NCBI GenBank assembly: GCA_963730935.1
Contig: CAVSTP010000003.1
Span: 542,292-606,291, forward strand
Source of the DNA: an uncultured Nitrospiraceae bacterium
Lineage (GTDB): Bacteria; Nitrospirota; Nitrospiria; Nitrospirales; Nitrospiraceae
DNA: 64,000 nt
Reading direction: 5' to 3'
A program made the position numbers and the translations under genes. Below, piece by piece: positions 17,740 to 58,423 of this stretch (positions within the stretch are counted from its first letter, which is position 1; each line of letters opens with the position of its first letter). The notes below the pieces were generated by a model. It saw nothing but the letters and a program-made list of their open reading frames with translations. It was not told where the DNA came from and searched no databases.

Positions 17740-17836
17740 GCGGGTGACGCTGACCTGGGCGCCCAGTCGCCTGCAGCGGGGTCCCCACACCGGGCGGGGT
17801 GCGAAGCCGACTGGGCTGGTCAGCGGCAGGACCCGC
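17740..17836 (-). repeat. Palindromic 3'-UTR repeat, short form (97 nt), copy A
   Basis: On the minus strand it reads GCGGGTCCTGCCGCTGACC...CCCGCCCGGTGTGGGGACCCCGCT...GGTCAGCGTCACCCGC and begins 21 nt after the mltC-like stop. It aligns over its whole length with 42791-42887. Confidence 0.85.
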
Positions 17837-17857
17837 CTTTCTTGTTCCTCTCACAGC

Positions 17858-19108
17858 TCAATTCGCTCCTCCCGCGCTCACATAGCTCTTTCGGTACGTG
17901 GTGACCTTTTCCAAATAATTGCGGGTTTCTTGATAGGGAAGATCGGCCCGTAACTTGTCGTAGAGGACGGCGGGTTGAAGGCCATTGATCTGCTGTACGG
18001 CGGTTGTCCGATTCTTGGAGAAGGTACGCAGGACGTTGCCGGGGCCCGTGTTGTACGCGGCGATCACACAATATTCGCGCGAAACCTCGTTGGCCACCTC
18101 CTCCAGTTGATTGAACGTGAGCACGTTCAGATAGGCCGTGCCGAGCTCCACGTTGTTCTGGGGGTCAAAGAGATAGTCCCTGGTTGGCGCGACATCCTCT
18201 CCCTTCGCCCGGCGATAGGCTTCGCGACCGCCGCTCGTCGGCACCAGTTGCATGAGGCCATAGGCCGGGGCCGAACTGACGGCGTAGGGATTGAAATTGC
18301 TTTCAGTCCTGATGATCGCGAACACCAGGCTCGGACTCATCTTGTACTGTTCGGCATAACGAAGCACCATTGTACGATATTTCTCCGCCTGCTTTTGCGG
18401 AAGGTTCACCACCATGTTCATGTTCACGAACGTGGCTTGTTTCCTGCTTTCGCCCTGTTCGATGACTCTCGTGCCGATTTTCTTGTCCAACAGGTGGTTG
18501 GCGAAGGCTTCCGCCTCAGCCTGCGTGCGTACCGGTTTCCCATGTTGGTCCAACACGAGTCCGAGCAGGTAGGGTTCTTCGTTGTTGTTTACCGGGACCT
18601 CTTTATCCGAAAAGACATCCACCACACGGGGATCCTGCGGCGTCAATAGTGTCATTACCACGGCATGGCTGAGGCTCTCCTGAGGATTCTTTTCATCCAC
18701 CGTTTCCACGGTAATCTGCCCGCGGTCGAAATCGACGATGGCACGGCTTCGATAGTTTTGCGTGTATTTCACATATTTCTTCTTCTCGGGAAGCTTAACT
18801 TCTTTTGGTCCCCACTTTTCTTTGACGTTACCAGTCAGGGCATCGTACAGCGCCTGGAATTCGTGCTGAGCGGCATGAAGGTCCTTGAGCAGCCGTTCAG
18901 GGTCACGCGCATAGTCATCGAGCCGCCCCTTGGCGATCTTTGAAGGGTCTTTCCCTCCAATGAGCGCGACGACATCCCTCCCGGTCCGGCCCGCGACTGC
19001 GTGCTCGGTGGCCTTTAGCATTCGATCCGTCGACTCGCAGCTAAGTAGAGCCAGCGAGAGGAAGGGCAATACAAATACGCGAAGCGTCAGACCCAGCATG
19101 GGGGGCAT
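17858..19108 (-). CDS. mltC: Membrane-bound lytic murein transglycosylase (MltC-like lipoprotein with SLT domain)
   Basis: Lipobox LALLSC. The SLT catalytic region is AIIRTESNFNPYAVSSAPAYGLMQLVP, and the N-terminal domain resembles the MltC-specific DUF3393. Confidence 0.75.
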   Translation of the reverse strand: MPPMLGLTLRVFVLPFLSLALLSCESTDRMLKATEHAVAGRTGRDVVALIGGKDPSKIAKGRLDDYARDPERLLKDLHAAQHEFQALYDALTGNVKEKWGPKEVKLPEKKKYVKYTQNYRSRAIVDFDRGQITVETVDEKNPQESLSHAVVMTLLTPQDPRVVDVFSDKEVPVNNNEEPYLLGLVLDQHGKPVRTQAEAEAFANHLLDKKIGTRVIEQGESRKQATFVNMNMVVNLPQKQAEKYRTMVLRYAEQYKMSPSLVFAIIRTESNFNPYAVSSAPAYGLMQLVPTSGGREAYRRAKGEDVAPTRDYLFDPQNNVELGTAYLNVLTFNQLEEVANEVSREYCVIAAYNTGPGNVLRTFSKNRTTAVQQINGLQPAVLYDKLRADLPYQETRNYLEKVTTYRKSYVSAGGAN

Positions 19109-19210
19109 TTTACTACAGGAAAGACACTCAGTCCTCTGAAAGTTTTGTTTTGTCTCCAGAAAAAATAGATTACAGAAATTTTACATCATCCTTACCAAGG
19201 ACCGATTGAA

Positions 19211-19238
19211 TCCGAATGACTTTCTGATTACATTCGGA
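19211..19238. promoter_or_regulatory. Perfect 8-bp inverted repeat in the AT-rich divergent intergenic region
   Basis: TCCGAATG-N12-CATTCGGA ends 3 nt before ATG 19242. It could be an operator or a 5' hairpin. Confidence 0.25.
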
Positions 19239-19241
19239 CGC

Positions 19242-23622: not shown

Positions 23623-24039
23623 CGGACGGACTCCTTCTTGAATGTGGGAACATGAAAAAGCCAGACAGGCTACCGGTGCGGGAAGGGGTGTGTCAATCGT
23701 GATAGAGGCAACAGGAGTATTAATGTTGTTATCCCGACGCTAGAGAGAGCAGTGCATAGGAATGCGAGCATGAATCGCATCAGTTTCTGGCTCCGTTCTT
23801 GAATGCTCTTCCCCGCGACTTGCGAAGACTCATATCATACAGGCGCTCGCCCAGAGACGTTTCCTCCAGCGTCAATGAGTGATTCGGCCTTCTCCTTAGC
23901 CATAGCTATCAATTTTCGGCGTGAGGTATGAAAATACGGCCGCTGGATCGCCTGGATTCGGATGCCATATCGAGCGCAGCTCTGCTTGAGGTGCAGTGAT
24001 ATGTAAAGCACCGCCCGCCCACATGGAATGGAGGGAGAC

Positions 24040-25023
24040 ATGAAATCTCTCATTGCAGGTTTACTCTTCTTCATCACTCTCATTCAGGGATGTTCCACTC
24101 TCTCAGAGGGGCGGGGAACGCCTGCATCTACGAACACGTACTACGAACGCCGATGCAGTTCCGGGGTTCTGTTGGAGCCGCTCGATGCCGAAGCGCAGCT
24201 GTCGCCCGAGCGCCTGGCATTGTTGAGAGGGCAGTTCTCCATCACGGCATTTGAGACCGCGGCCGCGCTTGGAGTGGTTCCTTTTCTGGATCACCTCTTA
24301 ACTCTCGAGACCCAAGTAGGTCCACGTGGAGAAGGGCCGGCGCTCGAGTATGTTCGGGAACGCCGGCATATCACAGATCGCATTACGTTAGGAATTCTGG
24401 ACGTATCGAGTGTTGCCGTCGAGGCGGGGTGCGAGCAAGGCCGCGCGACCTTGTTGGCCGAGCACTTGCAAAAGTCGCTCGACAAGCGCCAGAACGTCTA
24501 TACCATCCTCGGTTTGGTCGGCAGCGGTGTCCTTACAGTCATCAGCGGAGCCATCGGGGTAGGGGCTTCCAGCATCGGCGTCTTGAACACGGCGAATGTT
24601 GCCACGGTGATCGGCGGAGCCAGCGAGCTCATTTTTGGATCAGCCGCGTTGATTGACACGACCGGAACTGAGGAACTTCATCACGAGCGCAATCTTCTAA
24701 AAGACATTTGGACCGGAGAGAACAGCACCTTTGTCCCCGCCGTCTGGTCCTTCCTGAACACCCGATTGACGGACGAGCCGGCTCAGCCGACCTTGCGAGA
24801 AACCCTGATTATGAGGTGGCGAGAAGAGGGCCGCCTTGGTCCACCAGGGTCGGAGGACGAACAGCACCGGATCGACCTCTTTTTTGGAAAGGGAGGCCGT
24901 TACACGATCGATGAGCTCCGAGCGAGAGCGGCGATGCTCGATCTCCTCGAGATCGATATCAGTCTGATGCACCAAGGAATGAACCGACTGATCCGGGAGC
25001 TCTTGAGGCGAGACAAGGTCTAG
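24040..25023 (+). CDS. Hypothetical lipoprotein
   Basis: RBS GGAGGGAG before ATG 24040. Signal and lipobox MKSLIAGLLFFITLIQGC. There is an internal Gly/Ala-rich hydrophobic stretch. No family recognised. Confidence 0.6.
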   Translation: MKSLIAGLLFFITLIQGCSTLSEGRGTPASTNTYYERRCSSGVLLEPLDAEAQLSPERLALLRGQFSITAFETAAALGVVPFLDHLLTLETQVGPRGEGPALEYVRERRHITDRITLGILDVSSVAVEAGCEQGRATLLAEHLQKSLDKRQNVYTILGLVGSGVLTVISGAIGVGASSIGVLNTANVATVIGGASELIFGSAALIDTTGTEELHHERNLLKDIWTGENSTFVPAVWSFLNTRLTDEPAQPTLRETLIMRWREEGRLGPPGSEDEQHRIDLFFGKGGRYTIDELRARAAMLDLLEIDISLMHQGMNRLIRELLRRDKV

Positions 25024-25303
25024 CTGACGGTCCTTCCGAGCTTGCGTGTACTTCCCGTCCCTTCGGGCAGGTCAGAGACGGATGTCTTGCCTGCGATTTT
25101 AGCGAAGGCGAGGGGTACCGTCGACTCGGCCGGCGACTTTGACGGTTGGCATGGTGGTGGACTTCGGTCGCTTTAGCGACGGCTCTGTATGTCAGATGGT
25201 CCGTTGACGAACGTCACAATGGACCGAGTTTACAGAGCCGAGGCGTCTAGTGACCATGCGTTTTCAACCGTCGCGGAGCCGGCGCACCGAATCCCTGCAA
25301 GCC

Positions 25304-27577
25304 TCACAACTTTCCAAACGTCCTCTCCCAAAACTCCCTCACCTTCCCCATATGCTCTTCAACATCTGTCTTCAAATGCCTCGCTCCCGCCTGCCAGTCG
25401 TCGGTGGTGTAGCCGACGCGGCGCGCCAGAAAGATAAACTCGTCTGAATCGGCGGGCGGAAGGACCAAGTCCTTGGCATGGCCTCGCACCATGCGTAGTC
25501 CGTCGATCAGCATCCGGATAAACAGGTACGCCTTTCGGAGATTCTCGCCGTTCTGCCGGCTGACAATCCCGCACTCAACAAGTCCCGCAAGCGCCTGCAT
25601 AGCGTTCGGCGTGCGCAGCACCGCATGACGGTGCCCGTGCATGAGCTGGAGGTATTGAATGGCGTATTCGATGTCGACGACCCCTCCGGGACTGAGCTTG
25701 GCGTTCACAGTGCCGCGCTCGACGAGTTGTTTGAGTTGTTGCCGGCGCAGGTCGAGGGCGGAGGCCACATCCCACGGCGCCGCGCTATAGACATACCGGT
25801 CCCGATGGACTTCGACCTGTTTCCCGAGGGCGGCATCGCCGGCGACGTGGCGGAGCTTGATCATGGCCTGCCGTTCGAACGGCACGGCGAGTCCTTGCTC
25901 ACTGTAATACGCGGTGATTTCGTCCAAAGGATTGGCCAGAAAGCCTTTGCTCCCGTGGGGACGCAGACGGACGTCGAGATGAAAGATGCCTTCCTGCTTG
26001 GCCTCGATCCACTGCAGCAACTCCTGCGTGAGCCGCTCGAAGTATTCGCTGTTCTCGATGCCGGCTTTGCCGTTGGTACGGCCGGCGCCGCCGTAGACGA
26101 ACAGGACTTCGATATCAGACGCATAGCCCAACTCCCGGCCGCCGAACTTGCCCGCGCCCATCACGGCAAAGGAGCAGGGCTTGCCGTTCGTCAACCGGGG
26201 GGCGCCGTACATCTTGTTGAGTTTCGCCTGGCAGTCTTTCAGGCTGCGTTCGACGATCACTTCGGCTAACTGAGTCAGGGCGAGGGAGAAGTCGGCGAGG
26301 CTCGTGTCGGGCTCGACGATGTGCTTCATGTCGATGCGGAACAGTTCCTGATCCTTGAAGCGATTCAGCGCGTCTTTCCGTCCAGCGTCATCTTTGGCTC
26401 GGTCCACGACGCGGTCGAGCGCCTTGCGGAGCGCCGCGCGCGGCGTGATGAGAGGCGCGTCACGATAGTCGTGAAGCAGCGGCAGGAGGTGATCATGCTG
26501 ACGGCGGAGAAAGTCTTCCCAGAGAAAATCGCTGGCGCCGAGGAGCCGGGCCAAGAGCGGAAACGTTTTCTTGTCGCTTAGAAAGGCCAGGGCTTCCTCA
26601 CGAGCCTTGCCCTTCGTCTCCTGAACGGTGAGATCGAGAAATTGGTCAAAGGCTTCCAGGGCCTTGGTCGGGTCCGGCGCCCAGGTGAGGGCGTGGGTGA
26701 ACTGCTTGATGAGGACAGCCGTCAACCGCAACTGCTGCTGCTCAGCCGGGTCGGTCAGTTTCTGGCCGTAACGGTTACGTACGGCAAACCGGTCATGCAG
26801 CTTGCCGCCGTCGAGGTCGATGCGGGCTGTCGTGATATACACGTTTCTCATCGCAAGCGCATTGGCGAAGGCATAGAGGAAGGCGGGCGTATCGTCCGAG
26901 CGGATGTCCATGATCGTGTCGGTCGGCGATTGGCTGTTGTCGAACCCAATTTGGACCGGATGCAGCAAGCCGCTGAATGAGCCTCGCCGCTTGCCCAGAT
27001 GTTCTACCAGGTGACGATTCACCGCATGCCGGGCTTCCTCGGACTTGCCTTCGTCCAGCAGGCCGATCAACGTACGGAGTTCGCCTTTGAAGCGCACTTG
27101 ATCGTCCGGTGTGAAGGAGGCGTCGCCGACCGGTTGCACGCGAAAAACGTCCACAATCTTTTTCCGGCTCAAGCCGGGACGCTGCTTGGGGCGTTGGCGC
27201 GGACCTTCGCTGTAGGCGGGCCTCGTGGACGGGCTGGAAACCGCCCCCTCACTGAATGTGTAGATCTGACCTTCCTCGATGTTCAGTCCGAATGCCGACA
27301 GGAGGCCACAGATGGTGGCGAATTCTGCAAAGTAATCGTAGGCGACGACCGTCAGCTCGAAGTGGCCGTTGCGAAATTCGGACACGGAGCACTCGGATAG
27401 ATGATCCGGCGTCAATACCGCTGCCAACCGGACATGCTGTGCGATCGTAGGGAGGGGGATGTGGCGGAAATACTCCCCGTCCATCCGGGTGACAAAATCA
27501 CGAAGAATATCCGGCGGGACGTCCGTAGAGAGGGGACTGAGGGCCTGAAGCAACTCTTCACGGTCCGAATTGGCCAT
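25304..27577 (-). CDS. glnE: GlnE-like nucleotidyltransferase, single-module, with an ACT-like N-terminal extension (half of a split glutamine-synthetase adenylyltransferase)
   Basis: One GlnE NTase core (FAVMGAGKFGGRELGYASDIEVLFVY ... YFERLTQELL ... HLDVRLRPHGSKG ... ERQAMIKLRHVAGD). The N-terminal ~250 aa resembles GlnD-type ACT segments. ATG 27577 is preferred over GTG 27598. Confidence 0.75.
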   Translation of the reverse strand: MANSDREELLQALSPLSTDVPPDILRDFVTRMDGEYFRHIPLPTIAQHVRLAAVLTPDHLSECSVSEFRNGHFELTVVAYDYFAEFATICGLLSAFGLNIEEGQIYTFSEGAVSSPSTRPAYSEGPRQRPKQRPGLSRKKIVDVFRVQPVGDASFTPDDQVRFKGELRTLIGLLDEGKSEEARHAVNRHLVEHLGKRRGSFSGLLHPVQIGFDNSQSPTDTIMDIRSDDTPAFLYAFANALAMRNVYITTARIDLDGGKLHDRFAVRNRYGQKLTDPAEQQQLRLTAVLIKQFTHALTWAPDPTKALEAFDQFLDLTVQETKGKAREEALAFLSDKKTFPLLARLLGASDFLWEDFLRRQHDHLLPLLHDYRDAPLITPRAALRKALDRVVDRAKDDAGRKDALNRFKDQELFRIDMKHIVEPDTSLADFSLALTQLAEVIVERSLKDCQAKLNKMYGAPRLTNGKPCSFAVMGAGKFGGRELGYASDIEVLFVYGGAGRTNGKAGIENSEYFERLTQELLQWIEAKQEGIFHLDVRLRPHGSKGFLANPLDEITAYYSEQGLAVPFERQAMIKLRHVAGDAALGKQVEVHRDRYVYSAAPWDVASALDLRRQQLKQLVERGTVNAKLSPGGVVDIEYAIQYLQLMHGHRHAVLRTPNAMQALAGLVECGIVSRQNGENLRKAYLFIRMLIDGLRMVRGHAKDLVLPPADSDEFIFLARRVGYTTDDWQAGARHLKTDVEEHMGKVREFWERTFGKL

Positions 27578-27607
27578 TGGGCAGTCAGTATATCTCACGA
27601 GTGTTCA

Positions 27608-27636: not shown

Positions 27637-27656
27637 GCCGCGCCGGCAGGATGTTG

Positions 27657-27801
27657 AAAAAGGTCGTCAGCTACGTTCTCGCATCGCTCAGCGGCTCGAC
27701 ATACGCACCCCGGAAAGAGCTGTTCCGGAAGCTCGGGGCGGGCGGGTGAGGAAGGTCTGCGTCACCGCTTCGCTCGCTGCGGCCTTACCGACGACCTTTT
27801 T
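27657..27801 (+). repeat. 145-nt palindromic element related to the right-hand module of the long-form repeat
   Basis: 12-bp closing stem AAAAAGGTCGTC / GACGACCTTTTT. Internal hairpin CCGGAA...TTCCGG. G-tract block GGGGCGGGCGGGTGAGGAAGG matches GGGTGGGCGGGTGAGAAG of the copies at 56.8, 42.0 and 37.07 kb. Confidence 0.7.
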
Positions 27802-27834
27802 GACCAGTCTGCGGGATATTGGTCTCATCAACTC

Positions 27835-29595
27835 ATGTTTGCCGAGGAGAGCTTGGGTACCAAAAAGGCATACCGTCGCCCGTTGAGCAAGCGAGAATCC
27901 TCGAAGTCGGCTCCGTTTCTAGTCCAACCTGCGATCGGAAAGCCCGACCCCACGCCGCTGTTGCTTGCGTCGGAACGCAATCCCCAGGAGGTACGCGGCA
28001 TCCTGACGGCCTACGGAGTGACGGACGTCGAACAAGCGGATCGTAATCTCCAATCCATGGCCGGTCACCCGCACGAGCGCCATCAGCTCGTCGCCATCCT
28101 GCCGATGCTGATGGAGTCCATTGCGCGCACCGCCGATCCGGATCAGGCGCTGAACCATTGGGAGCGGCTTCTCGAGAACATGACGCGTTCCACCTTTCTC
28201 GACTATCTGCACAGCTCTCCGCGGATGCTCGACCTGTTATCCACCATTTTCGGCAACAGCGATTCACTCGCCTTCACGATCATCCGAGATCCCATGTTGG
28301 TCTATTGGTTGGCCGAAGAGGACGTGCTCTCCAAACCGTCGACGAGAGCCGGTCTCGAGCAGGCCATCCAAAAGCAATTGGCCCGTCTCACCGTGAAAGA
28401 GCTGAAACTGGCGGCGCTCCGCCGGTTTCGCCGGCGTGAGATGCTCCGCATCGGTGTGCGGGATCTGCTGCGGCTGGCGGACGTGTCCGAGACGACGGCA
28501 TCCCTGTCGGATCTGGCCGCACTCCTGATTCATGCGGGCTATGAAATTGTTGATGCCGACCTGCGCCGGCAATACGGCCGGCCCATGCATAAGAGCCGGC
28601 AGGGGAAATGGGTGGAGACGGGTTTCGCCGTCATAGGGATGGGAAAGCTCGGCGGGCACGAGCTGAACTACAGCTCGGATGTAGATCTGATCTTCGTCTA
28701 CGCGTCTCACGAAGGAGAAACCCGAGCGAGGCAAGCTGCCGCCAAGGCGGTGGCTGCCGGCATTGCGAATGAGGAGTATTTCGAGATCCTCTCGCGCGAA
28801 CTCACCAAGGCCTTGAGCGAGCCGACCAAGGAAGGGTACGTCTTCCGTGTCGACCTGCGCCTTCGTGCGGAGGGATCGGTGGGACAACTCGCCCGGTCGT
28901 TGGATGACTATCGAAGGTACTATCTGACACGGGGCCAGATCTGGGAGCGACTCGCCCTGCTCAAAGCCTGGCCGGTGGCCGGCTCTTCTGAAGTGGGCAA
29001 GGCGTTCTTAAGGGTGGTGGCGCCATTTGTGTTGGGACGAGGCAATGCCAATCCTGGCCTGGCCGGCGCCATGGCCGTCATCGACGATGTGCGAACGGTC
29101 AAAGAAATGATCGATGCCAAGATGGCCGATCGGGGACATGAGCAGCGCAACGTCAAGCTTGGCACCGGCGGCATCAGGGAAATCGAATTCTTGGTGCAGA
29201 CCATTCAAGTGCTGGCCGGTAGAGCCGTTCCGACATTGCTCGACCGAAGTACGCTTGGGTCGTTGAGGGCGTTTGCGGCGAAGAAACTGTTGCCGGCGAA
29301 GGAGCGCGATGCCCTTTCGGCCGCCTATCTGTTCCTCCGGGACGTCGAACACAAGCTGCAGATGGTGCACGATCTGCAAACGCACTCGTTGCCGGATAGG
29401 GCTGAAGAACTTGCGCACTGCGCGATTCGGATGGGATACGACACGAAAGATCGAGCGCGAGGTGTGACCCAGTTTCTGGCCGATCATCAATACCACACCG
29501 AACTCGTCAATCGGACGTTCCGGGCCTTCTTTCATGAGCGCAAGACATCGCGCCTCCTGAAAAAAGTCCTGCAGTCGATCCGCGCTCGCCGCTGA
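27835..29595 (+). CDS. glnE: GlnE-like nucleotidyltransferase, single-module (other half of a split glutamine-synthetase adenylyltransferase)
   Basis: 586 aa with a GlnE N-terminal helical region (MLDLLSTIFGNSDSLAFTIIRDPMLVYWL), an NTase core (FAVIGMGKLGGHELNYSSDVDLIFVY) and YFEILSRELT...VDLRLRAEGSVG...WERLALLKAWPVAG. Confidence 0.8.
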   Translation: MFAEESLGTKKAYRRPLSKRESSKSAPFLVQPAIGKPDPTPLLLASERNPQEVRGILTAYGVTDVEQADRNLQSMAGHPHERHQLVAILPMLMESIARTADPDQALNHWERLLENMTRSTFLDYLHSSPRMLDLLSTIFGNSDSLAFTIIRDPMLVYWLAEEDVLSKPSTRAGLEQAIQKQLARLTVKELKLAALRRFRRREMLRIGVRDLLRLADVSETTASLSDLAALLIHAGYEIVDADLRRQYGRPMHKSRQGKWVETGFAVIGMGKLGGHELNYSSDVDLIFVYASHEGETRARQAAAKAVAAGIANEEYFEILSRELTKALSEPTKEGYVFRVDLRLRAEGSVGQLARSLDDYRRYYLTRGQIWERLALLKAWPVAGSSEVGKAFLRVVAPFVLGRGNANPGLAGAMAVIDDVRTVKEMIDAKMADRGHEQRNVKLGTGGIREIEFLVQTIQVLAGRAVPTLLDRSTLGSLRAFAAKKLLPAKERDALSAAYLFLRDVEHKLQMVHDLQTHSLPDRAEELAHCAIRMGYDTKDRARGVTQFLADHQYHTELVNRTFRAFFHERKTSRLLKKVLQSIRARR

Positions 29596-35646: not shown

Positions 35647-36855
35647 ATGGCAAAGCCTTTCAACGATATCGAAGACGCCGTCCGCGACATTAAGAAGGGG
35701 AAGTTCGTCATCCTGGTCGACGACGAAGACCGGGAAAACGAAGGCGACCTCGTCATTGCCGCAGAAAAGGTGACCCCTCAGGCCATCAATTTCATGGCCA
35801 GGCATGCCCGCGGATTGATCTGCCTGGCACTGACTCCCGAGCGCGTCGAAGAACTGCACTTGCCCCAGCAGGCGGTCGAAAATACCGCGGTGTTTGGCAC
35901 CGCTTTCACGGTCTCGATCGACGCGCGCAAAGACATCACGACCGGGATCTCGGCGGCGGACCGTGCCACCACGATTCATGTGGCAATCGATCCCAAATCA
36001 AAACCGACAGACCTGGCGCGTCCCGGCCATATCTTTCCATTGAAGGCCGTACGGGGCGGTGTGTTGCGTCGCGCGGGGCAAACGGAAGGGTCGGTCGACC
36101 TGGCGCGTCTGGCGGGACTTCAGCCTGCCGGCGTCATCTGCGAAATCATGAACGAAGACGGCACGATGGCTCGTGTGCCCGAACTCACGAAATTCGCCAA
36201 GGCGCACAAGCTGAAGATGGTGACGGTCAAGGCCTTGATCGAATACCGCATGCGCCGGGAAACGTTCATCAAGCGGATGGCGAGCGCGCGGTTGCCCACG
36301 ATCTTCGGCGAATTCGATGCCGTCGCGTTCGAGAACGAAATCGACCACGTCACGCACATTGCGCTCGTCAGAGGCCGGGTGGACAACGGTGCGCCCACGC
36401 TGGTGCGGGTGCATTCCGGCTGTCTCACGGCCGACGCGCTGGGGTCGTTGCGATGTGACTGCCGTGATCAACTGCATGCAGCCATGGAAATCATTCAGAA
36501 GGAAGGGCGCGGGGTACTACTCTATTTGAATCAAGAAGGACGCGGCATCGGCCTGCTCAACAAGATCAAGGCGTACGGGCTACAGGATAAGGGCAGTGAC
36601 ACGGTGGAAGCGAATCTCAAGCTCGGCTTCAAGGCCGACCTGCGGGATTACGGCGTCGGCGCCCAGATTCTCGCGAATCTCGGCTTGCATCAGATCAAGC
36701 TAATTACCAACAACCCGCGCAAGATCGTCGGCATCGAAGGCTACGGGTTGAAAGTGGTCGAGCGCGTGCCGATCGAGATTCAGCCGCACGCGGGGAATGT
36801 CAGGTATTTAACGACCAAAAAGCAAAAACTAGGACACATTCTAAAAAAGGTTTGA
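35647..36855 (+). CDS. ribBA: Bifunctional 3,4-dihydroxy-2-butanone-4-phosphate synthase / GTP cyclohydrolase II
   Basis: DHBP synthase blocks ([22 protein letters not shown]) are followed by GCH II blocks ([31 protein letters not shown]). Confidence 0.97.
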
Positions 36856-36870
36856 GTCGGCTCGCCAAAC

Positions 36871-37112: not shown

Positions 37113-37153
37113 CTGAGGGGTGAGACCAAGAGAAAAGAGAAAACACAAGCTCC

Positions 37154-38169: not shown

Positions 38170-39498
38170 ATGATCGAACGCTATACCCGTCCGCAAATGA
38201 AGGTCATTTGGGATCTCAAGCACAAGTACGAGATCTGGCTGGAGGTCGAGCTCCAGGCGACGGCGGCTTTCGAGCGCGCCGGGCAGGCCCCGCGAGGAAC
38301 CGCCGCGAAAATCCGTAAGAAGGCGAAGGTCGATGTGGCTCGCATCGCCGAGATCGAGAAAGTCACCAAGCATGACGTGATCGCGTTCCTCGAATCGCTG
38401 ATGGATACGGTTGGGCCCGAACATCGTTTCTTACACATGGGATTGACCTCATCGGACATCGTCGATACGTCGTTGGCCATTCAGATGACCGAGGCGCTCG
38501 ATCTGATTCTCGAAGGAATCGAAGGATTCTTGGCCGTGCTTAAGCGCCAGGCTTTTCGGTACAAGGCGCAGATCATGGTCGGCCGCTCGCACGGCATTCA
38601 TGGGGAGCCGATCTCGTTCGGCTTCAAACTGGCCATTTGGCACGAGGAAGTGAGCCGGCATCTCACGCGCCTGCGCCAGGTGCGGAAGGAGATCGCCGTC
38701 GGCAAGCTCTCCGGCGCCATGGGCACGTTCGCGCATCAAGGGCCGGACATCGAAGCGTACGTCTGTGAAAAACTTGGCCTGACGGTCGACCCGGTGTCCA
38801 ACCAGATCGTGCAGCGCGACCGCCACGCCGCCTATGCGACGGCCCTCGCTTTGCTTGGGGCGACGATCGAGAAGATCGCGACTGAGGTGCGCCATCTCCA
38901 ACGGACGGAGGTTCTGGAGGCCGAAGAACATTTTTCGGCTGGCCAAAAGGGATCGTCGGCGATGCCGCACAAGCGCAATCCGATTGTGTCGGAAAACCTC
39001 TGCGGACTGGCGCGGCTCGTCCGGGCCAACAGTCTGGCGGCGATGGAGAATGTGGCGCTGTGGCACGAGCGGGACATTAGCCACTCGTCGGTCGAACGGG
39101 TCATCATGCCGGACAGCACCATTCTCATCGACTATATGTTGGCCAAGGTGACGGATTTGATCGAGCATCTGGTCGTCTATCCCGCCAATATGAAGCGCAA
39201 TCTCGAACTCACGGGCGGCTTGGTGTACTCGCAGCGGCTCCTGCTGGCGCTCATTGAGAAGGGCGCGCAGCGAAAGGAATCCTACGAGGCGGTGCAGCGC
39301 AATGCGATGGCGTCCTGGAACGGCTCCGGGGGGTTGCAGGAACTCGTCAGCAAGGACCCATTCATTGCACAGCATCTCAAGAAGAGCGAAATTGCGGCCT
39401 GTTTTGATCCAAAATACTATTTGCGGCATGTCGACGACATTTTTAAGCGAGTATTCGGAACCGGCTCACGGTCTCAATCAGGGAAAGGAAGGTCATGA
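38170..39498 (+). CDS. purB: Adenylosuccinate lyase
   Basis: 442 aa starting MIERYTRPQM, with the fumarate-lyase signature GSSAMPHKRNP. Confidence 0.97.
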   Translation: MIERYTRPQMKVIWDLKHKYEIWLEVELQATAAFERAGQAPRGTAAKIRKKAKVDVARIAEIEKVTKHDVIAFLESLMDTVGPEHRFLHMGLTSSDIVDTSLAIQMTEALDLILEGIEGFLAVLKRQAFRYKAQIMVGRSHGIHGEPISFGFKLAIWHEEVSRHLTRLRQVRKEIAVGKLSGAMGTFAHQGPDIEAYVCEKLGLTVDPVSNQIVQRDRHAAYATALALLGATIEKIATEVRHLQRTEVLEAEEHFSAGQKGSSAMPHKRNPIVSENLCGLARLVRANSLAAMENVALWHERDISHSSVERVIMPDSTILIDYMLAKVTDLIEHLVVYPANMKRNLELTGGLVYSQRLLLALIEKGAQRKESYEAVQRNAMASWNGSGGLQELVSKDPFIAQHLKKSEIAACFDPKYYLRHVDDIFKRVFGTGSRSQSGKGRS

Positions 39499-40289
39499 GA
39501 GCTCGACACGCTGGGTGCTTTGGGATCGTTGTGTTGGTCGCGTCGCTGTGGGCGACCGTGGCGCACGCGGCTCCCGATCGCGAGAAACTCTTGGCGGACC
39601 CAGGCGTCTACGGAACCTTTGCTGCCTACAGCTTCAATGATGACTGGGGGAGGAAGGAAGGTGCCACGCGCATTGCGCTCTTGACCGTACTCAAGGGAGT
39701 GGTGGAGCAGCATCGAGAAAAGATCGCGATCGATATGTATCTGTTGCGGGGGCTCTCCGACCGTGCGGACATACTGTTTCGCGTCCATGCCAACGAGATG
39801 CGCGATACGCAAAGGTTTCTGGTCGATCTCCAGGGCAGCGCGTTTGGAAAGCAGTTGCAAGTCACCGGGATCATGCATGGGTTGACCAAGAAGACCAACT
39901 ACGTGCCAGAATTCCCTGATGAAATGAAGGCTGATTTGAAAACGGCGAGCGACCCGGGCCCCAAACCGTATGCCGTCGTCATTCCCATTCGAAAAAGTGC
40001 CGACTGGTGGGCACTAGACCAGGAGACGCGGGCGGCCATGATGAAGGAGCACACCGAGGCGGCCTTGCCCTATCATAAGACGGTGAAGCGCAAACTCTAC
40101 CATTCGACTGGCCTCGACGATATGGATTTCATTACCTATTTTGAAACTTCGAAGATCGAGGACTTCCACAGCCTCATTCTGGCAATCGAGAAAGTGAAGG
40201 AATTCCAATATACGAGACGATTTGGTCATCCGATCTGGCTCGGCACGGCCAGGGGGTTGGATGAGATCATCGAGATCCTGGCGCAGTAG
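39495..40289 (+). CDS. cld: Chlorite dismutase (Cld), periplasmic, Nitrospira-type
   Basis: Signal peptide, then blocks I remember from the characterised Nitrospira defluvii Cld: ADREKLL, YLLRGLSD.AD..FRVHA, PYA.VIPI.K.A.WWALDQE, LPY.KTVKRKLYHSTGLDD.DFITYFET, VKEF...RRFGHP. The start overlaps the purB stop (ATGA). Confidence 0.92.
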   Translation: MRARHAGCFGIVVLVASLWATVAHAAPDREKLLADPGVYGTFAAYSFNDDWGRKEGATRIALLTVLKGVVEQHREKIAIDMYLLRGLSDRADILFRVHANEMRDTQRFLVDLQGSAFGKQLQVTGIMHGLTKKTNYVPEFPDEMKADLKTASDPGPKPYAVVIPIRKSADWWALDQETRAAMMKEHTEAALPYHKTVKRKLYHSTGLDDMDFITYFETSKIEDFHSLILAIEKVKEFQYTRRFGHPIWLGTARGLDEIIEILAQ

Positions 40290-41020: not shown

Positions 41021-41058
41021 CGGAGACTGAGCCTTGCCCGCTCACACACTGCAACTCG

Positions 41059-41181
41059 ACCGCACTAAGTTTCGCATAGCTCGCCCCGCGAAACTTGTTC
41101 CGTTCAAAGCTACGCTCGAACGGAACTTCGAACATCGCGAGCCGTCCACATGGTGGACCGCTCCTGCTCAACTAGTGCGGT
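41059..41181 (+). other. Multi-hairpin structured intergenic element (candidate ncRNA/REP-like)
   Basis: Closing stem ACCGCACTA / TAGTGCGGT (41059-67 / 41173-81). It encloses two hairpins of identical geometry (9-bp stem, 12-nt loop): AAGTTTCGC/GCGAAACTT and GTTCCGTTC/GAACGGAAC. A third hairpin is GTCCAC-ATG-GTGGAC. Confidence 0.5.
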
Positions 41182-41262
41182 GACCCGAGTTTCCGTGATA
41201 TCGCGGAACAAGGCTCAGAACTCCACCCGCTTTTGAGGAGAAGGGAGACAAAGAAGTAGGGA

Positions 41263-41481: not shown

Positions 41482-41717
41482 AAGCCAAGATTCATGTCAC
41501 GTTGAAGCAGGGAATTTTGGATCCGCAGGGCAAGGCCATTGAACATGCGCTCGACTCGCTGGGCTTTAAAAACGCCGCCAACGTTAGGGTCGGCAAATAT
41601 ATGGAATTGGATGTGAGCGAGAAAGACAAGGCAAAAGCCGAGGCACAGGTGAAGCAGATGTGCGAGAAGCTGTTGGCGAATACGATCATTGAAGAATATC
41701 GGTACGAGTTGACGTGA
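41478..41717 (+). CDS. purS: Phosphoribosylformylglycinamidine synthase subunit PurS
   Basis: 79 aa with KIHVTLKQGILDPQGKAIEHALDSLGF..V..VRVGKY.EL, canonical PurS. Confidence 0.93.
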   Translation: MKAKIHVTLKQGILDPQGKAIEHALDSLGFKNAANVRVGKYMELDVSEKDKAKAEAQVKQMCEKLLANTIIEEYRYELT

Positions 41718-41736
41718 AGTATCTTGGAAAAAGGGC

Positions 41737-42033
41737 GCGGGTCCTGTCACTGGCGGAGCCCACCGTGCTCGTTCCCCCGTCCGGTGTGGGGGGAGACAGG
41801 GCGGCCCATTAGCCTCTTGTGCTCGCGGAACGCGGCACACGGGAACAATCGTATTTGCACATTGCGGGAGGTGCTCGTTCGACGCGCGCACGTTTGAGGC
41901 AAAACGGACCTCCCCTAGAAAACGAGTGAGCAAGTGCGAGAAGGGTTGGCAGACGCTGCGGGCGTCTGGTGAAAGCCGCGTCTCAGCGCGGCAGGGTGGG
42001 CGCGTGAGAAGGCCCTCCGCCAGTGCCACCCGC
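41737..42033 (+). repeat. Palindromic 3'-UTR repeat, nested form (297 nt), copy E
   Basis: Family ends GCGGGTCCTG...GCCACCCGC. A perfect 10-bp helix ACTGGCGGAG / CTCCGCCAGT is present. It carries the long-form module (GCCGCGTCTCAGCGCGGCAGGGTGGGCGCGTGAGAAGG) plus a ~160-nt internal insert. It begins 19 nt after the purS stop. Confidence 0.8.
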
Positions 42034-42071
42034 TCAAGATTCGCTCAGCTGCTTTGTGGGAAAGGGAAGAA

Positions 42072-42788
42072 GTGAATATCGGGGTGATCGTATTTCCTGG
42101 CTCGAATTGTGATCACGACTGCGAGCATGTCTTCAGAGATGTGCTGGGACAGAATGTGACGATGGTCTGGCATAAGGAAACGTCCTTGGCCGGTCTGGAC
42201 GGCGTCGTTCTGCCGGGAGGGTTTTCATACGGAGATTATCTTCGTACGGGAGCCATTGCCAGGTTTTCACCGGTGATGCCGGCGATCAAGGAATTCGCCC
42301 AAGGTGGTGGCTTGGTCATGGGCATCTGCAACGGGTTTCAAATTTTGCTCGAGGCAGGATTGCTCCCGGGGGCGATGCTGCGGAACCGCTCGCTCCACTT
42401 CGTCTGCAAGGATGTTCGTGTGCGGGTAGAAAACGCCGCCACTCCTTTCACTAGTGCATGCCAGCCCGGCCAGGTGCTCAACATTCCGGTCGCCCACGCC
42501 GATGGGAATTACTATACCGACCCCGTGACGCTGGCTGGACTGCAGGCCAATGCTCAAGTGGTCTTTCGGTATTGCACACCGGAGGGGAAGATCACGGCGG
42601 AAGCCAACCCGAACGGCTCCCTCGACAATATCGCCGGCATTCGCAATGCCGAAGGCAATGTGTTGGGCATGATGCCGCATCCCGAGCGCTCCGCTGAGGA
42701 ACTGTTGGGGAATGTGGACGGTCGGTTGATTCTGATGTCCATGCTGGAGTCGTTGAAGAATCGGCCGCTGAAAATGGTGGGGGCGTGA
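42072..42788 (+). CDS. purQ: Phosphoribosylformylglycinamidine synthase subunit PurQ (glutaminase)
   Basis: [16 protein letters not shown]...[15 protein letters not shown]...GICNGFQIL...MPHPER is the GATase triad context. GTG 42072 fits the family N-terminus better than TTG 42054. Confidence 0.93.
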
Positions 42789-42790
42789 CC

Positions 42791-42887
42791 GCGGGTCCTG
42801 CCGATGATCAGCCCGTCCGTCCTCGCATCCCGCCCGGTGTAGGGACCCCGCTCCGGGCGGACGGGCGCCCAGATCATCGTCACCCGC
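42791..42887 (+). repeat. Palindromic 3'-UTR repeat, short form (97 nt), copy B
   Basis: GCGGGTCCTGCCGATGATCAGCCCGTCCG...CCCGCCCGGTGTAGGGACCCCGCT...CGGACGGGCGCCCAGATCATCGTCACCCGC. It begins 2 nt after the purQ stop and is followed by ATTTTT. Confidence 0.88.
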
Positions 42888-43008
42888 AGTCATTTTTCTG
42901 TGAGGGAAAGCGGAGAAGAGAAAAAGTGTAAAGGGGCCTGATCGCTCTTGGCAAGTCGCTTCAAGACATGGGCTCACCGTTTGTAGTGGCCGGGAGGAAA
43001 AAAGAGGA

Positions 43009-45594: not shown

Positions 45595-45604
45595 CGGTTG
45601 GGGT

Positions 45605-56748: not shown

Positions 56749-56753
56749 CAGCC

Positions 56754-56893
56754 GCGGGTCCTGTCCTCGACCAGCCCGACCGTCCTCGCACCCCGCCCGG
56801 TGTAGGGACTCCGCTGCGGGCGCTTGGTGAAGGCCGCGTCCCGGCGCGGCTGGGTGGGCGGGTGAGAAGATCTCCCAGGTCGAGGCCACCCAC
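56754..56893 (+). repeat. Palindromic 3'-UTR repeat, long form (140 nt), copy C
   Basis: GCGGGTCCTGTCCTCGACC...CCCGCCCGGTGTAGGGACTCCGCT...GCCGCGTCCCGGCGCGGCTGGGTGGGCGGGTGAGAAG...GGTCGAGGCCACCCAC. It begins 5 nt after the recG stop. Confidence 0.88.
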
Positions 56894-56941
56894 TGAAGGA
56901 GAAACCCGATCACGGTGTGAGTATGAGAGGGGTGAAGGCTA

Positions 56942-57265
56942 ATGGGCTTGCTGCAGCGGTTAAAGCATGATCTGAAGTCGGGGCTGGCGACGCTCCGGTT
57001 GGGCACGGCGCAGGCCGCCAATCGCGCACTCGAGGAGACGGAGTTGTTGCGTCTCCGCCTCGAACTCCGGCGGATCGATCAGGAATTGAAGGAGCTGTAT
57101 CGCGACGTGGGTGAGCGGGCCGTGAGTCTTCGTGAGGCCGGTGAGCCCGTAGAACGTGTCTTGTACGATACGGAGATTGCCCGCCTCGTGAAGGACATCC
57201 AGCAGTTGAAAGAGACGAGCGCCAAGCTAGAAGCTGAAATGCAGGAAATTCGCGACGCAGAATGA
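56942..57265 (+). CDS. Hypothetical coiled-coil protein (107 aa)
   Basis: Heptad-rich, highly charged sequence. The stop overlaps the start of the downstream Ppx/GppA gene (ATGA). Confidence 0.55.
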   Translation: MGLLQRLKHDLKSGLATLRLGTAQAANRALEETELLRLRLELRRIDQELKELYRDVGERAVSLREAGEPVERVLYDTEIARLVKDIQQLKETSAKLEAEMQEIRDAE

Positions 57266-58194
57266 GGGACCAGCGCCTTGCAGGCATCGACATTGGGACA
57301 CTGACTTGCCGACTCCTCATTGCCGATCTTCCCGCCAACGGCCCCTTGAAGGAACTGCACTCAGAGCGACGGATTCTTCGGCTCGGCGAAGGCGTCGATC
57401 AGTCGAAACGGCTGAAGCCAGAGGCGATGGACCGCGTGGCTCGGTGCCTTCAAGAATGGCGCAGAGTCATCGACGGCTATGACGTGCAGGCGCGAACGGC
57501 CGTGGCGACAAGCGCCGTTCGTGACGCGAAGAATCGGCAGCAGTTTGTGGATCGAGTCAAATCGGAGACCGGCCTCGAGGTCGAAATCCTCACCGGCGAG
57601 GAAGAAGCGAAACGAACCATGCTCGGCATTCGCTCTGGCCTCCCTCAAGGAGTTACCGACGTACTGGCGCTAGACATTGGCGGGGGCAGCACGGAATTCA
57701 TCTTGGCTCAACAGGGACAACCACCCGTCGTGTGCTCGATCGATATCGGGGTCGTACGGCTCTCCGAACGGCTGTTGCATCATGATCCGCCGACAAGAGA
57801 GGAGATAGAGCAGGCGCGTGTCTGGATCCGGCGGGAAACCACTGAGGCTTTGGCTGCAATGCCGCGCTCGTCAGGATTCACCTTCGTCGGGACAGCAGGC
57901 ACGATCACCTCATTGGCGGCCATGGCGCAGCAGCTTCCCGTCTATGAGCCGACAAGGATCCATAACTACCGACTGGGGCTGGAAACAATCGCCGACCTCG
58001 AGCAGCAATTGCTGAGTCGATCCAAAGCGGCGCGAGTCGGCATGCCTGGACTGGAAAAAAATCGAGAAGACGTTATTGCCTCCGGAGCCATCATCCTCCG
58101 GACGGTCATGGACACCTTGGGCGAGCGGGAGTGCCTTGTAAGTGATCTGGGATTACGGGAAGGGGTGCTGATTCACTTGGCCATGAGCCAATAA
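57262..58194 (+). CDS. Ppx/GppA-family phosphatase (exopolyphosphatase / guanosine pentaphosphate phosphohydrolase, short form)
   Basis: ASKHA-fold motifs AGIDIGTLTCRLLIA, ATSAVRDAKN and LALDIGGGSTEF. 310 aa. Confidence 0.85.
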   Translation: MRDQRLAGIDIGTLTCRLLIADLPANGPLKELHSERRILRLGEGVDQSKRLKPEAMDRVARCLQEWRRVIDGYDVQARTAVATSAVRDAKNRQQFVDRVKSETGLEVEILTGEEEAKRTMLGIRSGLPQGVTDVLALDIGGGSTEFILAQQGQPPVVCSIDIGVVRLSERLLHHDPPTREEIEQARVWIRRETTEALAAMPRSSGFTFVGTAGTITSLAAMAQQLPVYEPTRIHNYRLGLETIADLEQQLLSRSKAARVGMPGLEKNREDVIASGAIILRTVMDTLGERECLVSDLGLREGVLIHLAMSQ

Positions 58195-58283
58195 TGTTCT
58201 GAATTGTGTCTGTTGCCTGTCCTCCGTTCAGTACGACCACTGCGGCTTCTGCTCGCTGATTCAAAAAGTATCCTTTCTCCTTT

Positions 58284-58423
58284 GCGGGTGGCGCTGATCT
58301 GGAACCTTTTTCACCCACCCAACCCTGCCGCGCCGAGACGCGGCTTTTCACCAAGCGCCCTTAGCGGGGTCCCTACACCGGGCGGGGGCGAGGACGGACG
58401 GGCTGGTCAGCGTCAGGACCCGC
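58284..58423 (-). repeat. Palindromic 3'-UTR repeat, long form (140 nt), copy D
   Basis: The minus-strand reading aligns end to end with copy C. It begins 16 nt after the stop of the minus-strand 496-aa methyltransferase gene. Confidence 0.88.

Follow-up and report, generated by a model that had tools for sequence, protein, structure and literature searches.

A large, old family of hairpin-forming intergenic repeats with a bias towards gene ends in Nitrospira

Five repeats in a 64,000-nt stretch of DNA from an uncultured Nitrospiraceae bacterium (the window, meaning the whole stretch analysed) are members of a large, old Nitrospira family of hairpin-forming intergenic repeats. In a genome scan the family reached at least 116 loci among the matches listed, and the covariance model gave more than 100 sense matches at 50-136 bits, with antisense shadows of no more than 24 bits. 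The family is native to Nitrospiraceae, whose MAGs hold more than 100 copies, and is present too in some high-GC Methylomirabilia-labelled MAGs (66-71% GC), which hold a few. We see an about even chance that it is a long-resident mosaic palindromic element of the REP/BIME, ERIC or TRIT kind, probably co-transcribed and forming a hairpin at cistron ends. An initial annotation of the window had proposed a candidate new 3'-UTR RNA element. That the repeats form a real hairpin-forming family is borne out by the covariance-model copies and by covariation; the proposal of a new class is not supported, because the element fits the known REP/ERIC/TRIT kind, turns over at the same sites and has no G·U preference.

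All five copies were found at the coordinates and on the strands claimed for them (Table 1), and each does begin 2-21 nt past a stop codon, the measured distances being 2 nt (copy B), 21 nt (A), 19 nt (C), 5 nt (D) and 16 nt (E). The names given to the neighbouring genes were also backed (PurS, PurQ and PurC; MltC-like, RecG and methyltransferase). Copy A follows the MltC-like gene (17858-19108, minus strand), with 180 nt to the next minus-strand gene, and copy B follows purQ, with the next gene (Pyr_excise) 121 nt on. It is the 297-nt copy C, behind purS, that lies within purS-purQ, where the initial annotation had written copy E. Copy D follows recG and precedes the next gene by 48 nt, while copy E, behind the minus-strand gene of a 496-aa methyltransferase, is convergent with the Ppx/GppA gene, whose end is 89 nt away. 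Orientation in the window tracks the gene and not the replichore, since GC skew is positive throughout and yet copies A and E, both on the minus strand, follow genes of that strand.

Table 1 Coordinates of the five copies, their parts and a related hairpin in the window.
Feature	Position	Strand	Description
Copy A	17740-17836	-	97-nt short type; MFE -55.5, z -3.15; 122 bits (covariance model)
Copy B	42791-42887	+	97-nt short type; MFE -52.7, z -3.55; 123.8 bits sense, 19.6 antisense
Copy B, foot	42791-42796 paired with 42882-42887	+	internal loop CCUG versus CC
Copy B, locus-specific stem GATGATC	42804-42809 paired with 42872-42877	+	
Copy B, 12-bp stem including U·G pair	42811-42822 paired with 42855-42866	+	
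Copy B, apical domain	42823-42854	+	
Copy B, outer stem extension	42786-42892	+	read from sequence
Copy C	41737-42033	+	297-nt mosaic between purS and purQ; 14.4 bits for the 5' part
Copy C, family 5' arm and diverged core	about 41737-41800	+	
Copy C, nested unrelated palindromic element	about 41800-41955	+	
Copy C, 3' module and closing arm	about 41956-42033	+	
Copy D	56754-56893	+	140-nt type; 60.2 bits
Copy E	58284-58423	-	140-nt type; 49.9 bits
Sixth, related long hairpin	41021-41262	+	MFE -102.3, z -5.86

The core CCCGCCCGGTGTRGGGAC has 5 matches in the window at up to 3 mismatches, against 0.16 expected; it is exact in four copies and carries 3 mismatches in copy C, and GCGGGTCCTG is exact in 5/5 copies. 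The conserved ends described for the family hold in general, except that copy D ends CCACCCAC, one mismatch away. The second helices, quoted as differing in sequence, were verified (GATGATC/GATCATC, GCTGACC/GGTCAGC, CTCGACC/GGTCGAG and ACTGGCGGAG/CTCCGCCAGT), together with the one C-A mismatch in that of copy E. The covarying third helix was found in the two 97-nt copies only; in the 140-nt copies its 3' strand has been swapped for another module. The organisation is a mosaic of BIME type: the short type consists of a 5' arm, core and 3' arm, and the 140-nt type adds a 3' module, the order in copy D being the short-type 5' arm and apical domain, the 3' module (CTTGGTGAAGGCCGCGTCCCGGCGCGGCTGGGTGGGCGGGTGAGAAG) and the closing arm. 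Long forms throughout are mosaics, either with this shared 3' module, which is also present in other element families, or with other palindromes nested inside. Nested blocks are carried by copy C and loci L204 and L097; that of copy C is seen again at 36954-36980 of the window and in L117 and L120.

Beyond the five copies, the covariance-model scan of the window found none, and a "degenerate copy" reported between ribBA and ribH went undetected with filters off and E up to 10. The Rfam search that had been recommended as a check returned zero family matches in Rfam 15: there were no matches for the whole window at gathering thresholds, and the sole match for 41650-42950 at E up to 10 was IRES_Bip (E = 9.2), a chance match outside the elements. 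The sixth hairpin in Table 1, absent from the initial annotation, begins at the purC stop codon (boundary TAG/CGGAG) and ends at the boundary between CTCCACCCGC and TTTTGAGG. L197 and L199 have a 140-nt family copy at the site orthologous to it, with which it shares the 3' foot and flank but not the interior.

A family member is one long hairpin, about 40 bp and interrupted. Its conserved foot (GCGGGU/ACCCGC) carries an asymmetric internal loop, CCUG//CC; the other parts are two stems of locus-specific yet complementary sequence, a U·G pair that is conserved, and a C-rich apical domain, likewise conserved and about 23 nt long, which ends in a small CCC-GGUGUR-GGG hairpin. Alifold gave 27 pairs, 20 of them with double changes, and across 79 copies 80.8% of cells were paired (71.6% in shuffles), with changes on both sides at 35 of 44 pairs. 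The covariation that had been claimed is statistically solid, with a score of 0.283 compared with 0.127 in shuffles (0/500 reached 0.283) and 0.06-0.08 for slid partners. Double compensated changes occur at strictly orthologous sites, for example GATGATC in copy B and GCTGACC in L073. Pairing also runs outwards: two positions outside the foot pair in 68-76% of copies family-wide, and in copy B the TGAC at 42786-42789 (the purQ stop codon plus one base) pairs with GTCA at 42889-42892.

Selection on an RNA helix would normally be expected to leave an excess of G·U over A·C, and the stems show none. Three counts gave A·C and G·U mismatches of 82 vs 56, 62 vs 28 and 21 vs 7, a ratio that fits the background sense-strand substitution asymmetry at third codon positions. 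Since A·C is at least as common as G·U, the covariation is no proof of RNA function, and DNA-level hairpin maintenance accounts for it equally well; the compensatory changes had been taken as a sign of RNA-level function, and this argument falls. One DNA-level reading, which we hold to be very improbable, is an ssDNA hairpin or cruciform that is bound or recombined by a protein, either attC-like or a nucleoid-protein or gyrase site. The build is indeed attC-like (the ends are conserved and pair, a spacer stays unpaired, the inner stems are less conserved and have extrahelical bases, and the top varies), the element begins at or near a stop codon and is oriented with the gene, and a mismatch is G·T more often when read on the bottom strand than on the top. 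However, background substitution bias explains this bottom-strand excess, and the conserved U·G pair is itself a mismatch on the bottom strand. Integron attC sites are marked by R''/R' core sites (RYYYAAC...GTTRRRY), cassette arrays and a nearby intI gene. The copies described here end in GCGGGT/ACCCGC with no GTTRRRY/RYYYAAC core, are scattered behind housekeeping genes on both strands in no cassette array, and have no integrase found nearby and no recombinase recurring near them, so that identity with attC was rejected.

The placement census comprised 66 ortholog clusters, with genes called by a crude, custom-built finder. Tandem gene contexts had 33 sense and 6 antisense copies (p = 1.4e-5). 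The usual site is a few nucleotides past the stop codon of a same-strand gene, often within operons, with a median of 6 nt separating the element from the upstream stop codon and one of 54 nt separating it from the next start codon. A coding ORF ended within 30 nt upstream in sense at 32/63 clusters and at the mirror position at 6/63. The initial annotation had called the repeats orientation-locked, of which a strong bias and the nearness to stop codons remain; the sense share is about 85%, with about 15% of tandem-context copies antisense, no more than about half of the clusters have a stop codon within 30 nt, and 6 clusters lie between divergent genes, where a 3'-UTR role is impossible.

The view that these are not simple intrinsic terminators was upheld. 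The hairpin is present, but a T-run (at least 4 T within 14 nt) follows in just 2/56 clusters and in 17/33 tandem-sense copies the next start codon comes within 60 nt, and we rejected an intrinsic (Rho-independent) terminator on these grounds. A hairpin without a U-tract could instead halt or pause RNA polymerase with the help of a protein, as a non-canonical terminator or attenuator resembling TRIT (Tuberculosis Rho-independent terminator motif), and we think it quite unlikely that the family works in this way. TRIT, in Mycobacterium, keeps to a very narrow range of positions about the stop codon (Gardner et al. 2011, PMC3152330), the host genome has few canonical terminators, and the authors suggested a binding factor (PMC3152330). 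The Nitrospira element likewise adjoins stop codons with a narrow distance distribution and is a high-GC, multi-copy hairpin conserved in sequence and structure that lacks a canonical U-tract; its conserved loops suggest a binding factor. Canonical terminator-like sites at 40-60 kb of the window are not enriched (14, against 18.5 ± 4.2 in shuffled sequence), and in relatives with the shared 3' module the end is formed by a closing stem and TTTTT, as it is in the window element at 27643-27815. Against termination stand the scarcity of T-runs, the half of tandem-sense copies so close upstream of the next start codon, and the copies within obvious operons (purS-purQ, recG and its next gene). TRIT is moreover symmetric, mostly bidirectional and confined to Mycobacterium, whereas the Nitrospira element is asymmetric, with conserved loops, orientation-biased, longer (97-300 nt), mosaic and often in operons. 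Membership of TRIT itself was rejected, as there is no sequence relationship, sense matches score 100-136 bits against no more than 24 bits antisense, and the host is Nitrospiraceae.

Orthologous copies have an identity of 0.91, compared with 0.60 at third and 0.90 at first-plus-second codon positions of the adjacent genes (28 pairs), and in family-variable columns identity is 0.75 between orthologs and 0.42 between non-orthologs. The copies have thus been kept nearly unchanged at the same loci while synonymous sites diverged heavily, a constraint that could partly be homogenisation among copies instead of function. From placement and constraint we infer a role in RNA. In close relatives, exactly these sites have undergone deletion, takeover by other palindromes, nesting and the swapping of modules, which is behaviour of the REP/BIME or ERIC type. 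The purS-purQ site has alleles of 35, about 50, 191 and 336-354 nt in strains with identical PurS.

Shared feet with different interiors and copies in MAGs of another phylum are typical of mobile DNA. The family may accordingly be read as a non-autonomous mobile element (MITE or REPIN-like), whose hairpin foot would be recognised as ss or dsDNA by a transposase encoded elsewhere; the hairpin would serve transposition, any effect on the host would be incidental, and the orientation bias would come from harmful antisense insertions or from insertion coupled to transcription. This we rate as rather unlikely. Several families with common GCGGG...CCCGC ends and different interiors do occupy the same sites, small hairpins are nested in larger loops, and other palindromes lie inside copy C. 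Among strains whose PurS is identical, or whose 107-aa neighbour protein is, the site can carry the element, lack it or have another occupant, and the Methylomirabilia-labelled copies and the stems without G·U preference also fit. Losses, however, are imprecise deletions that leave remnants, not excisions, and the copies are old; orthologous loci have conserved them, locus-specific stems included. The lack of a clear target-site duplication, noted from the window, was borne out more widely, and no transposase was found in the about 1.6 Mb covered. Direct flank repeats of 3, 4, 5 and 6 nt were observed 1, 3, 0 and 0 times (expected 0.8, 0.4, 0.2 and 0.02) and are at chance beyond 2 nt; it is inverted flank matches that are enriched 20-35 times (for 5 nt, 8/49 clusters against 0.27 expected). 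The terminal inverted repeat GCGGGT/ACCCGC is conserved and paired over only 6-8 bp, and the palindrome often runs on into locus-specific flanks. No transposase-like protein recurs near the copies, the top family occurring at 4/66 clusters and all recurrent families looking ordinary. In these loci and their flanking sequence we saw no autonomous element with a transposase and the same ends, and no Y1-transposase similarity by tblastn, a weak test with two queries. The element was not found in plasmid and viral collections.

Among known repeats, REPs often lie within 15-20 nt of a stop codon (PMC12306157), and those within 15 nt stall ribosomes according to work cited in that paper (PMC12306157). 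The family resembles the REP, BIME and REPIN elements of Enterobacteria and Pseudomonas as a many-copy, intergenic, imperfect palindrome near stop codons, probably co-transcribed with upstream genes, and in its module mosaics, retained hairpin and long vertical persistence. It differs from them in that REPs conserve the palindrome sequence, whereas here the stems are locus-specific and the loops and foot are conserved. A GTAG-like foot on a short conserved palindrome was rejected, since the foot reads GCGGGU and its loop CCUG; a tblastn search of the loci with two Y1-transposase queries gave no RAYT gene. The ERICs (IRUs) of Enterobacteria and Vibrio, too, are imperfect palindromes, about 127 bp long and situated between genes in regions that are transcribed. 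Insertions at fixed internal sites reportedly gave rise to longer ERICs and deletions to shorter ones; ERICs are also reported to be retained at orthologous loci and more conserved than neutral sequence, and their effects on mRNA are reportedly orientation-dependent. Imperfect palindromes, length variants and orthologous retention are shared, but there is no sequence similarity, ERICs have TA target duplications that the Nitrospira copies lack, and the host phylum is another. Correia/NEMIS elements of Neisseria and other MITEs are similar in their short terminal inverted repeats and length variants and, if the Nitrospira copies are transcribed as we presume, in their hairpin transcripts and co-transcription with neighbours. 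Correia/NEMIS, however, carry TA target-site duplications, long conserved terminal inverted repeats and IHF sites, in contrast to the short terminal pairing of the Nitrospira element and flanks that often extend its palindrome.

If the family is a long-resident, REP/BIME-, ERIC- or TRIT-like element, it would be transcribed as the tail of the upstream cistron, and the RNA hairpin would mark the cistron end. The hairpin could block 3'-to-5' exonucleases, or be a site of processing that determines how stable the segments of an operon are relative to one another. Coupling to translation termination, as for E. coli REPs within 15 nt of the stop codon, is possible and is proposed because the element starts within the ribosome footprint of the stop codon. 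The conserved unpaired bases suggest a sequence-specific factor, which would read the foot and apical domain. Origin, spread and turnover would take place at the DNA level, by insertion into or beside existing hairpins, deletion and module exchange, and template switching between the palindrome arms could yield both "compensatory" changes and outward stem growth into the flanks.

Nitrospira are key nitrite oxidisers and include the comammox organisms; to our knowledge, little is known of their transcript ends or of the tuning of expression in their operons. A hairpin module that is conserved and oriented, and that follows many genes in a region where canonical terminators are not enriched, offers a concrete way into the mRNA 3'-end biology of the phylum. 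The family is also a practical annotation feature, its covariance model separating the strands cleanly, and its elements probably contribute to MAG fragmentation. It further serves as a cautionary case, in that RNA function cannot be concluded from strong covariation alone when the sequence is a long DNA palindrome. As a speculation that we believe unlikely to be right as it stands, the foot and the C-rich apical domain may be the binding site of a dedicated protein that reads the cistron end in the mRNA right behind the terminating ribosome, so that, in Nitrospiraceae and some NC10 bacteria, canonical intrinsic terminators would be replaced by a "cistron-end" RNA module that depends on a protein and is orientation-specific. 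Such a module, if real, would serve factor-assisted termination, processing or stabilisation, and would be a widespread cis-acting RNA of a new class, in a group of environmental importance.

All five copies of the repeat family proposed by the initial annotation were found by sequence check at their expected coordinates and on their expected strands, and the family was also recovered independently by repeat finding. In the window, the 18-nt core matched five times at ≤3 mismatches (0.16 expected), and the 5' end GCGGGTCCTG was exact in 5/5 copies. MAFFT alignment revealed three size classes with common ends (97, 140 and 297 nt), and the 97-nt copies folded into a single long hairpin, with MFE values of -55.5 kcal/mol for copy A (z -3.2) and -52.7 kcal/mol for copy B (z -3.6). 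The stem pairs quoted in the annotation were all correct, and so were the distances of 2 to 21 nt between stop codon and copy. The flanking genes encode PurS, PurQ, RecG, an MltC-like transglycosylase and a methyltransferase. A copy does lie inside the purS-purQ operon, but it is the 297-nt copy C and not copy E, and the "degenerate copy" reported at ribBA-ribH was not found by our covariance model R1 with filters off. This model, built from an alignment of 79 short-type copies, detected exactly five copies in the window, while its antisense shadows scored ≤20 bits.

Coordinates of the repeat copies and of other features in the window
Feature	Position	Strand	Type or context	Distance from stop codon (nt)	R1 sense score (bits)
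Copy A	17740-17836	-	97-nt short type	21	122
Copy B	42791-42887	+	97-nt short type	2	124
Copy C	41737-42033	+	297-nt mosaic, purS-purQ spacer	19	14
Copy D	56754-56893	+	140-nt type	5	60
Copy E	58284-58423	-	140-nt type	16	50
3' module	56846-56870
3' module	58306-58330	-
3' module	41990-42012
Long hairpin	41021-41262	+	~240 nt, from the purC stop codon
Mosaic element	~36870-37120	+	between genes 35647-36855 and 37154-37699
Large palindrome	27643-27815		between 5' ends of divergent genes 25304-27598 (-) and 27835-29595 (+)
Small hairpin repeats	4878-4901, 4972-5018, 8927-8974		intergenic
38-nt repeat	17674-17711		adjoins copy A
38-nt repeat	25025-25062		directly past stop codon of gene 24028-25023
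38-nt repeat	39480-39505	inverted
Chlorite-dismutase-family gene	39495-40289		purine-biosynthesis cluster

Beyond the window, scanning one genome per species for the exact core gave at least 116 loci. Among the matches listed, about 95 were true copies, nearly all from Nitrospira or Nitrospiraceae MAGs; four of the copies listed lay on contigs labelled Methylomirabilia or "uncultured bacterium", with 66-71% GC versus ~53-62% for the Nitrospira loci, and about 20 of the matches listed were chance matches in other phyla, without the conserved paired ends (the foot, GCGGGU/ACCCGC). In the loci retrieved, R1 detected over 100 sense copies, about nine of which had not been selected by the core pattern. 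A known RNA family was ruled out, as Rfam 15 gave no match over the whole window at gathering thresholds and none to the element around copies B and C at E-values up to 10. A phage or plasmid origin was unsupported: the plasmid collection held zero copies, and in the sole viral match the core matched by chance and the flanking foot was missing. A literature search for an earlier description in Nitrospira returned nothing specific. The repeat family is real and well-defined, and apparently has not been described before.

The hairpin is built in layers. Its outermost part is a variable extension, in which pairing occurs at the two flanking positions in 68-76% of copies and, in a subset, reaches 5-14 bp into the locus-specific flanks. 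Inside it come the conserved foot, an asymmetric internal loop (CCUG versus CC) whose closing pair is G-C or G·U, a stem of 6-9 bp that differs between loci, and an A bulge facing the 5-nt loop GCCCA. The 12-bp inner stem that follows varies in its outer half and contains a U·G pair conserved in 85/101 copies; it leads through a short interrupted helix (CCUCGC/GCUGCGG) to a C-rich internal loop and the small apical hairpin CCC-GGUGUR-GGG, which in one copy, at locus L197, has the compensated form CUCG-GUGU-CGAG. In the 79-copy alignment, 80.8% of cells were paired versus 71.6% in shuffles, and 35 of 44 pairs showed double changes. The covariation claimed by the initial annotation was thus upheld, with a score of 0.283 versus 0.127 after shuffling (reached in 0/500 shuffles) and 0.06-0.08 with slid partners.

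In the 140-nt type, a separate module, CTTGGTGAA-GCCGCG-TCYC-GGCGCGGC-NGGGTGGGYGGGTGAGAAG, stands in place of the 3' strand of the 12-bp stem. For helix 3, we ruled out this G-rich module as partner of the 5' strand, because that strand is wholly different between copies and the module does not change along with it. Other element families contain the module too, in many cases with a closing stem and TTTTT after it, and it was seen at L024, L035, L057, L078 and L121. The module includes a G3-N1-G3-N1-G3 tract (GGGTGGGCGGGTGAGAAGG), to which some copies add a fourth G-run; judged by sequence alone, this tract seems able to form a sense-strand G-quadruplex. At two different loci (L097, ~6860-6900; L204, ~400-440) the small hairpin GGGAAATCGATTGCAAAGCAATCGGGGGG sits within the loop of the module's GCCGCG...CGCGGC hairpin, which makes a third layer of nesting.

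Several other elements were observed in the window. The mosaic element at ~36870-37120 has the ACGCGCGCACGTTT block in common with the interior of copy C, and the GGGGTGGGCGGGTGAGAA tract in common with the 3' module. The large palindrome, closed by AAAAAGGTCGTC...GACGACCTTTTT with GGGGCGGGCGGGTGAGGAAGG inside, looks like a bidirectional terminator. The small intergenic hairpins form a separate family (ACAAAGGCGTCC.../...GGACGCCTTTGT), and the two direct copies of the 38-nt repeat (TGAYGSTCCTTCCGAGCTTGC...TCCCT) are 82% identical. The chlorite-dismutase-family gene lies within the cluster purB-cld-purC-...-purS-purQ, and the related contigs L197-L199 share this arrangement.

For the analysis of placement, genes were called by a simple codon-usage finder, and 113 hits were grouped by flank similarity into 66 ortholog clusters. 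Between tandem genes, the element was sense in 33 clusters and antisense in 6 (binomial p = 1.4e-5); a further 9 clusters had convergent and 6 divergent genes. The orientation described as locked is therefore a strong bias of ~85%, but not a rule. Tandem-sense copies lay at a median of 6 nt past the upstream gene's stop codon and 54 nt from the downstream start codon, with ≤60 nt to that codon in 17 of 33 cases. Of 63 evaluable clusters, 32 had a coding ORF in the sense direction that stopped ≤30 nt before the element (mostly at -1 to 12 nt), versus only 6 at the mirror position, and all three kinds of stop codon were used. Replication direction was ruled out as the cause: GC skew has one sign throughout the window, yet there are minus-strand copies (A and E, each behind a minus-strand gene) as well as plus-strand ones (B, C and D), so orientation follows genes. 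Stop-codon hairpins as a general trait of the window's genes were also unsupported: a crude fixed-window fold gave z < -2 at just 6 of the 58 gene ends.

As the initial annotation had held, the element is not a simple terminator: a T-run followed it in only 2/56 clusters, and together with the many copies inside operons this ruled out a canonical terminator. Canonical terminator-like sites were not enriched at 40-60 kb of the window (14 versus 18.5 ± 4.2 expected), which leaves room for some copies to act like TRIT of Mycobacterium (PMC3152330). We consider a factor-assisted terminator improbable as the explanation of the family.

We compared the element with the final 100 codons of the gene upstream of it. 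Across 28 orthologous pairs, mean identity was 0.60 at third codon positions, 0.90 at first and second positions, 0.91 in the element and 0.80 in the 60 nt beyond it. Family-variable columns had an identity of 0.75 between orthologs versus 0.42 between non-orthologs, while for conserved columns the values were 0.91 versus 0.89. These identities indicate that the copies are old, slowly evolving residents of their loci, locus-specific stems included. Strictly orthologous sites do show double compensated changes; for example, GATGATC/GATCATC in copy B corresponds to GCTGACC/GGTCAGC at L073.

The same sites also show turnover. Among contigs whose PurS is identical to the window's, the purS-purQ spacer was 35 nt with only GCGGG kept (four contigs), a ~50-nt remnant GCGGGTCCTGTC (two), 191 nt with a small nested hairpin (one) or a ~340-nt form (the remaining contigs). 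Distant PurQ relatives (75-81% identity) lacked the family; there, the purS and purQ stop codons are immediately followed by long palindromes of other kinds, or the two genes nearly abut. In relatives, the copy B site is occupied by a short-type element, a 140-nt element or an unrelated palindrome; of this last, the window retains the 3' half, downstream of copy B. Behind purC, L197 and L199 carry a 140-nt family copy and the window a different hairpin (MFE -102 kcal/mol, z -5.9) that ends CTCCACCCGC|TTTTGAGG; its 3' foot and flank are the same as in the L197/L199 copy, while its interior is unrelated and contains AACTTGTTCCGT...CGAACGGAACTTCGAACA, which occurs also at the recG site of L211 and L214-L216. 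At the copy D site, another element, again starting with GCGGG just past the stop codon, is present in a sister lineage whose downstream protein is identical. Unrelated long palindromes were seen at the same purS/purQ 3' flanks in other Nitrospira lineages (L119, L120, L122, L199, L205); their 5' arm spans the upstream stop codon, as in GGTGAGGCCATG...CATGGCCTCACC after purQ, so stop-codon-overlapping stems are not peculiar to the repeat family.

Such swapped interiors raise the possibility that the copies are mobile DNA without host function, which we regard as unlikely, though the most serious of the alternatives. No protein family was regularly associated with copies in the 66 clusters (the most frequent appeared in 4), and in agreement with the annotation no transposase was seen near copies in ~1.6 Mb, a weak test given the approximate Y1 queries. 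A truncated copy at L109 adjoins a rearranged gene, not an insertion sequence. A classical MITE with target-site duplication was ruled out, since the element flanks carry no direct-repeat duplication. Inverted flank complementarity was instead enriched 20-35 times (at 5 nt, 8/49 clusters versus 0.27 expected).

Covariation tells that the hairpin is maintained; it does not tell which molecule forms it. In an RNA helix under selection, G·U pairs normally far outnumber A·C. In the variable stems, counted once per ortholog cluster, we found A·C 62 versus G·U 28 in the MAFFT alignment (p 4e-4), 21 versus 7 in a gap-free subset, and 82 versus 56 in the model-based alignment of 101 copies (p 0.03). 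Third codon positions of the adjacent genes were asymmetric on the sense strand in the same way (92 G>A plus T>C changes versus 61 C>T plus A>G, by parsimony and confounded by codon usage), so the stem mismatches look like raw mutational input without wobble tolerance. Template switching between quasi-palindrome arms in replication is a mutational mechanism known, reportedly, from studies by Ripley and by Lovett, and would yield both "compensatory" changes and outward stem growth, and the inverted flank complementarity without direct-repeat duplication fits this idea. The outer extension often takes in the upstream gene's stop codon and last codons, leaving the right flank alone free to change. 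An integron attC site, raised by the architecture and a bottom-strand G·T excess, was ruled out by context, by core sequence and by the agreement of that excess with background substitution bias. That the hairpin works as a DNA-level site seems very improbable to us. The proposal of a new 3'-UTR RNA element is plausible but unproven; the covariation on which it chiefly rests cannot separate RNA from DNA.

The best explanation, in which our confidence is about even, is a role in the upstream gene's transcript combined with DNA-level origin and turnover. The orientation bias, stop-codon proximity, operon-internal positions and strongly constrained asymmetric unpaired bases argue for the former; the mosaic structure, common ends around swapped interiors, nesting, imprecise losses, presence in more than one phylum and lack of G·U preference argue for the latter. 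The closest published parallels include TRIT, ERIC and the REP/BIME elements, with their stop-codon-proximal class as cited in PMC12306157, and the element belongs to an already known kind. In Nitrospira, the hairpin at the end of a cistron would likely block exonucleases or direct processing, may be linked to the ribosome that terminates there, and is probably read by a sequence-specific factor, while its copies would arise and turn over by DNA-level processes.
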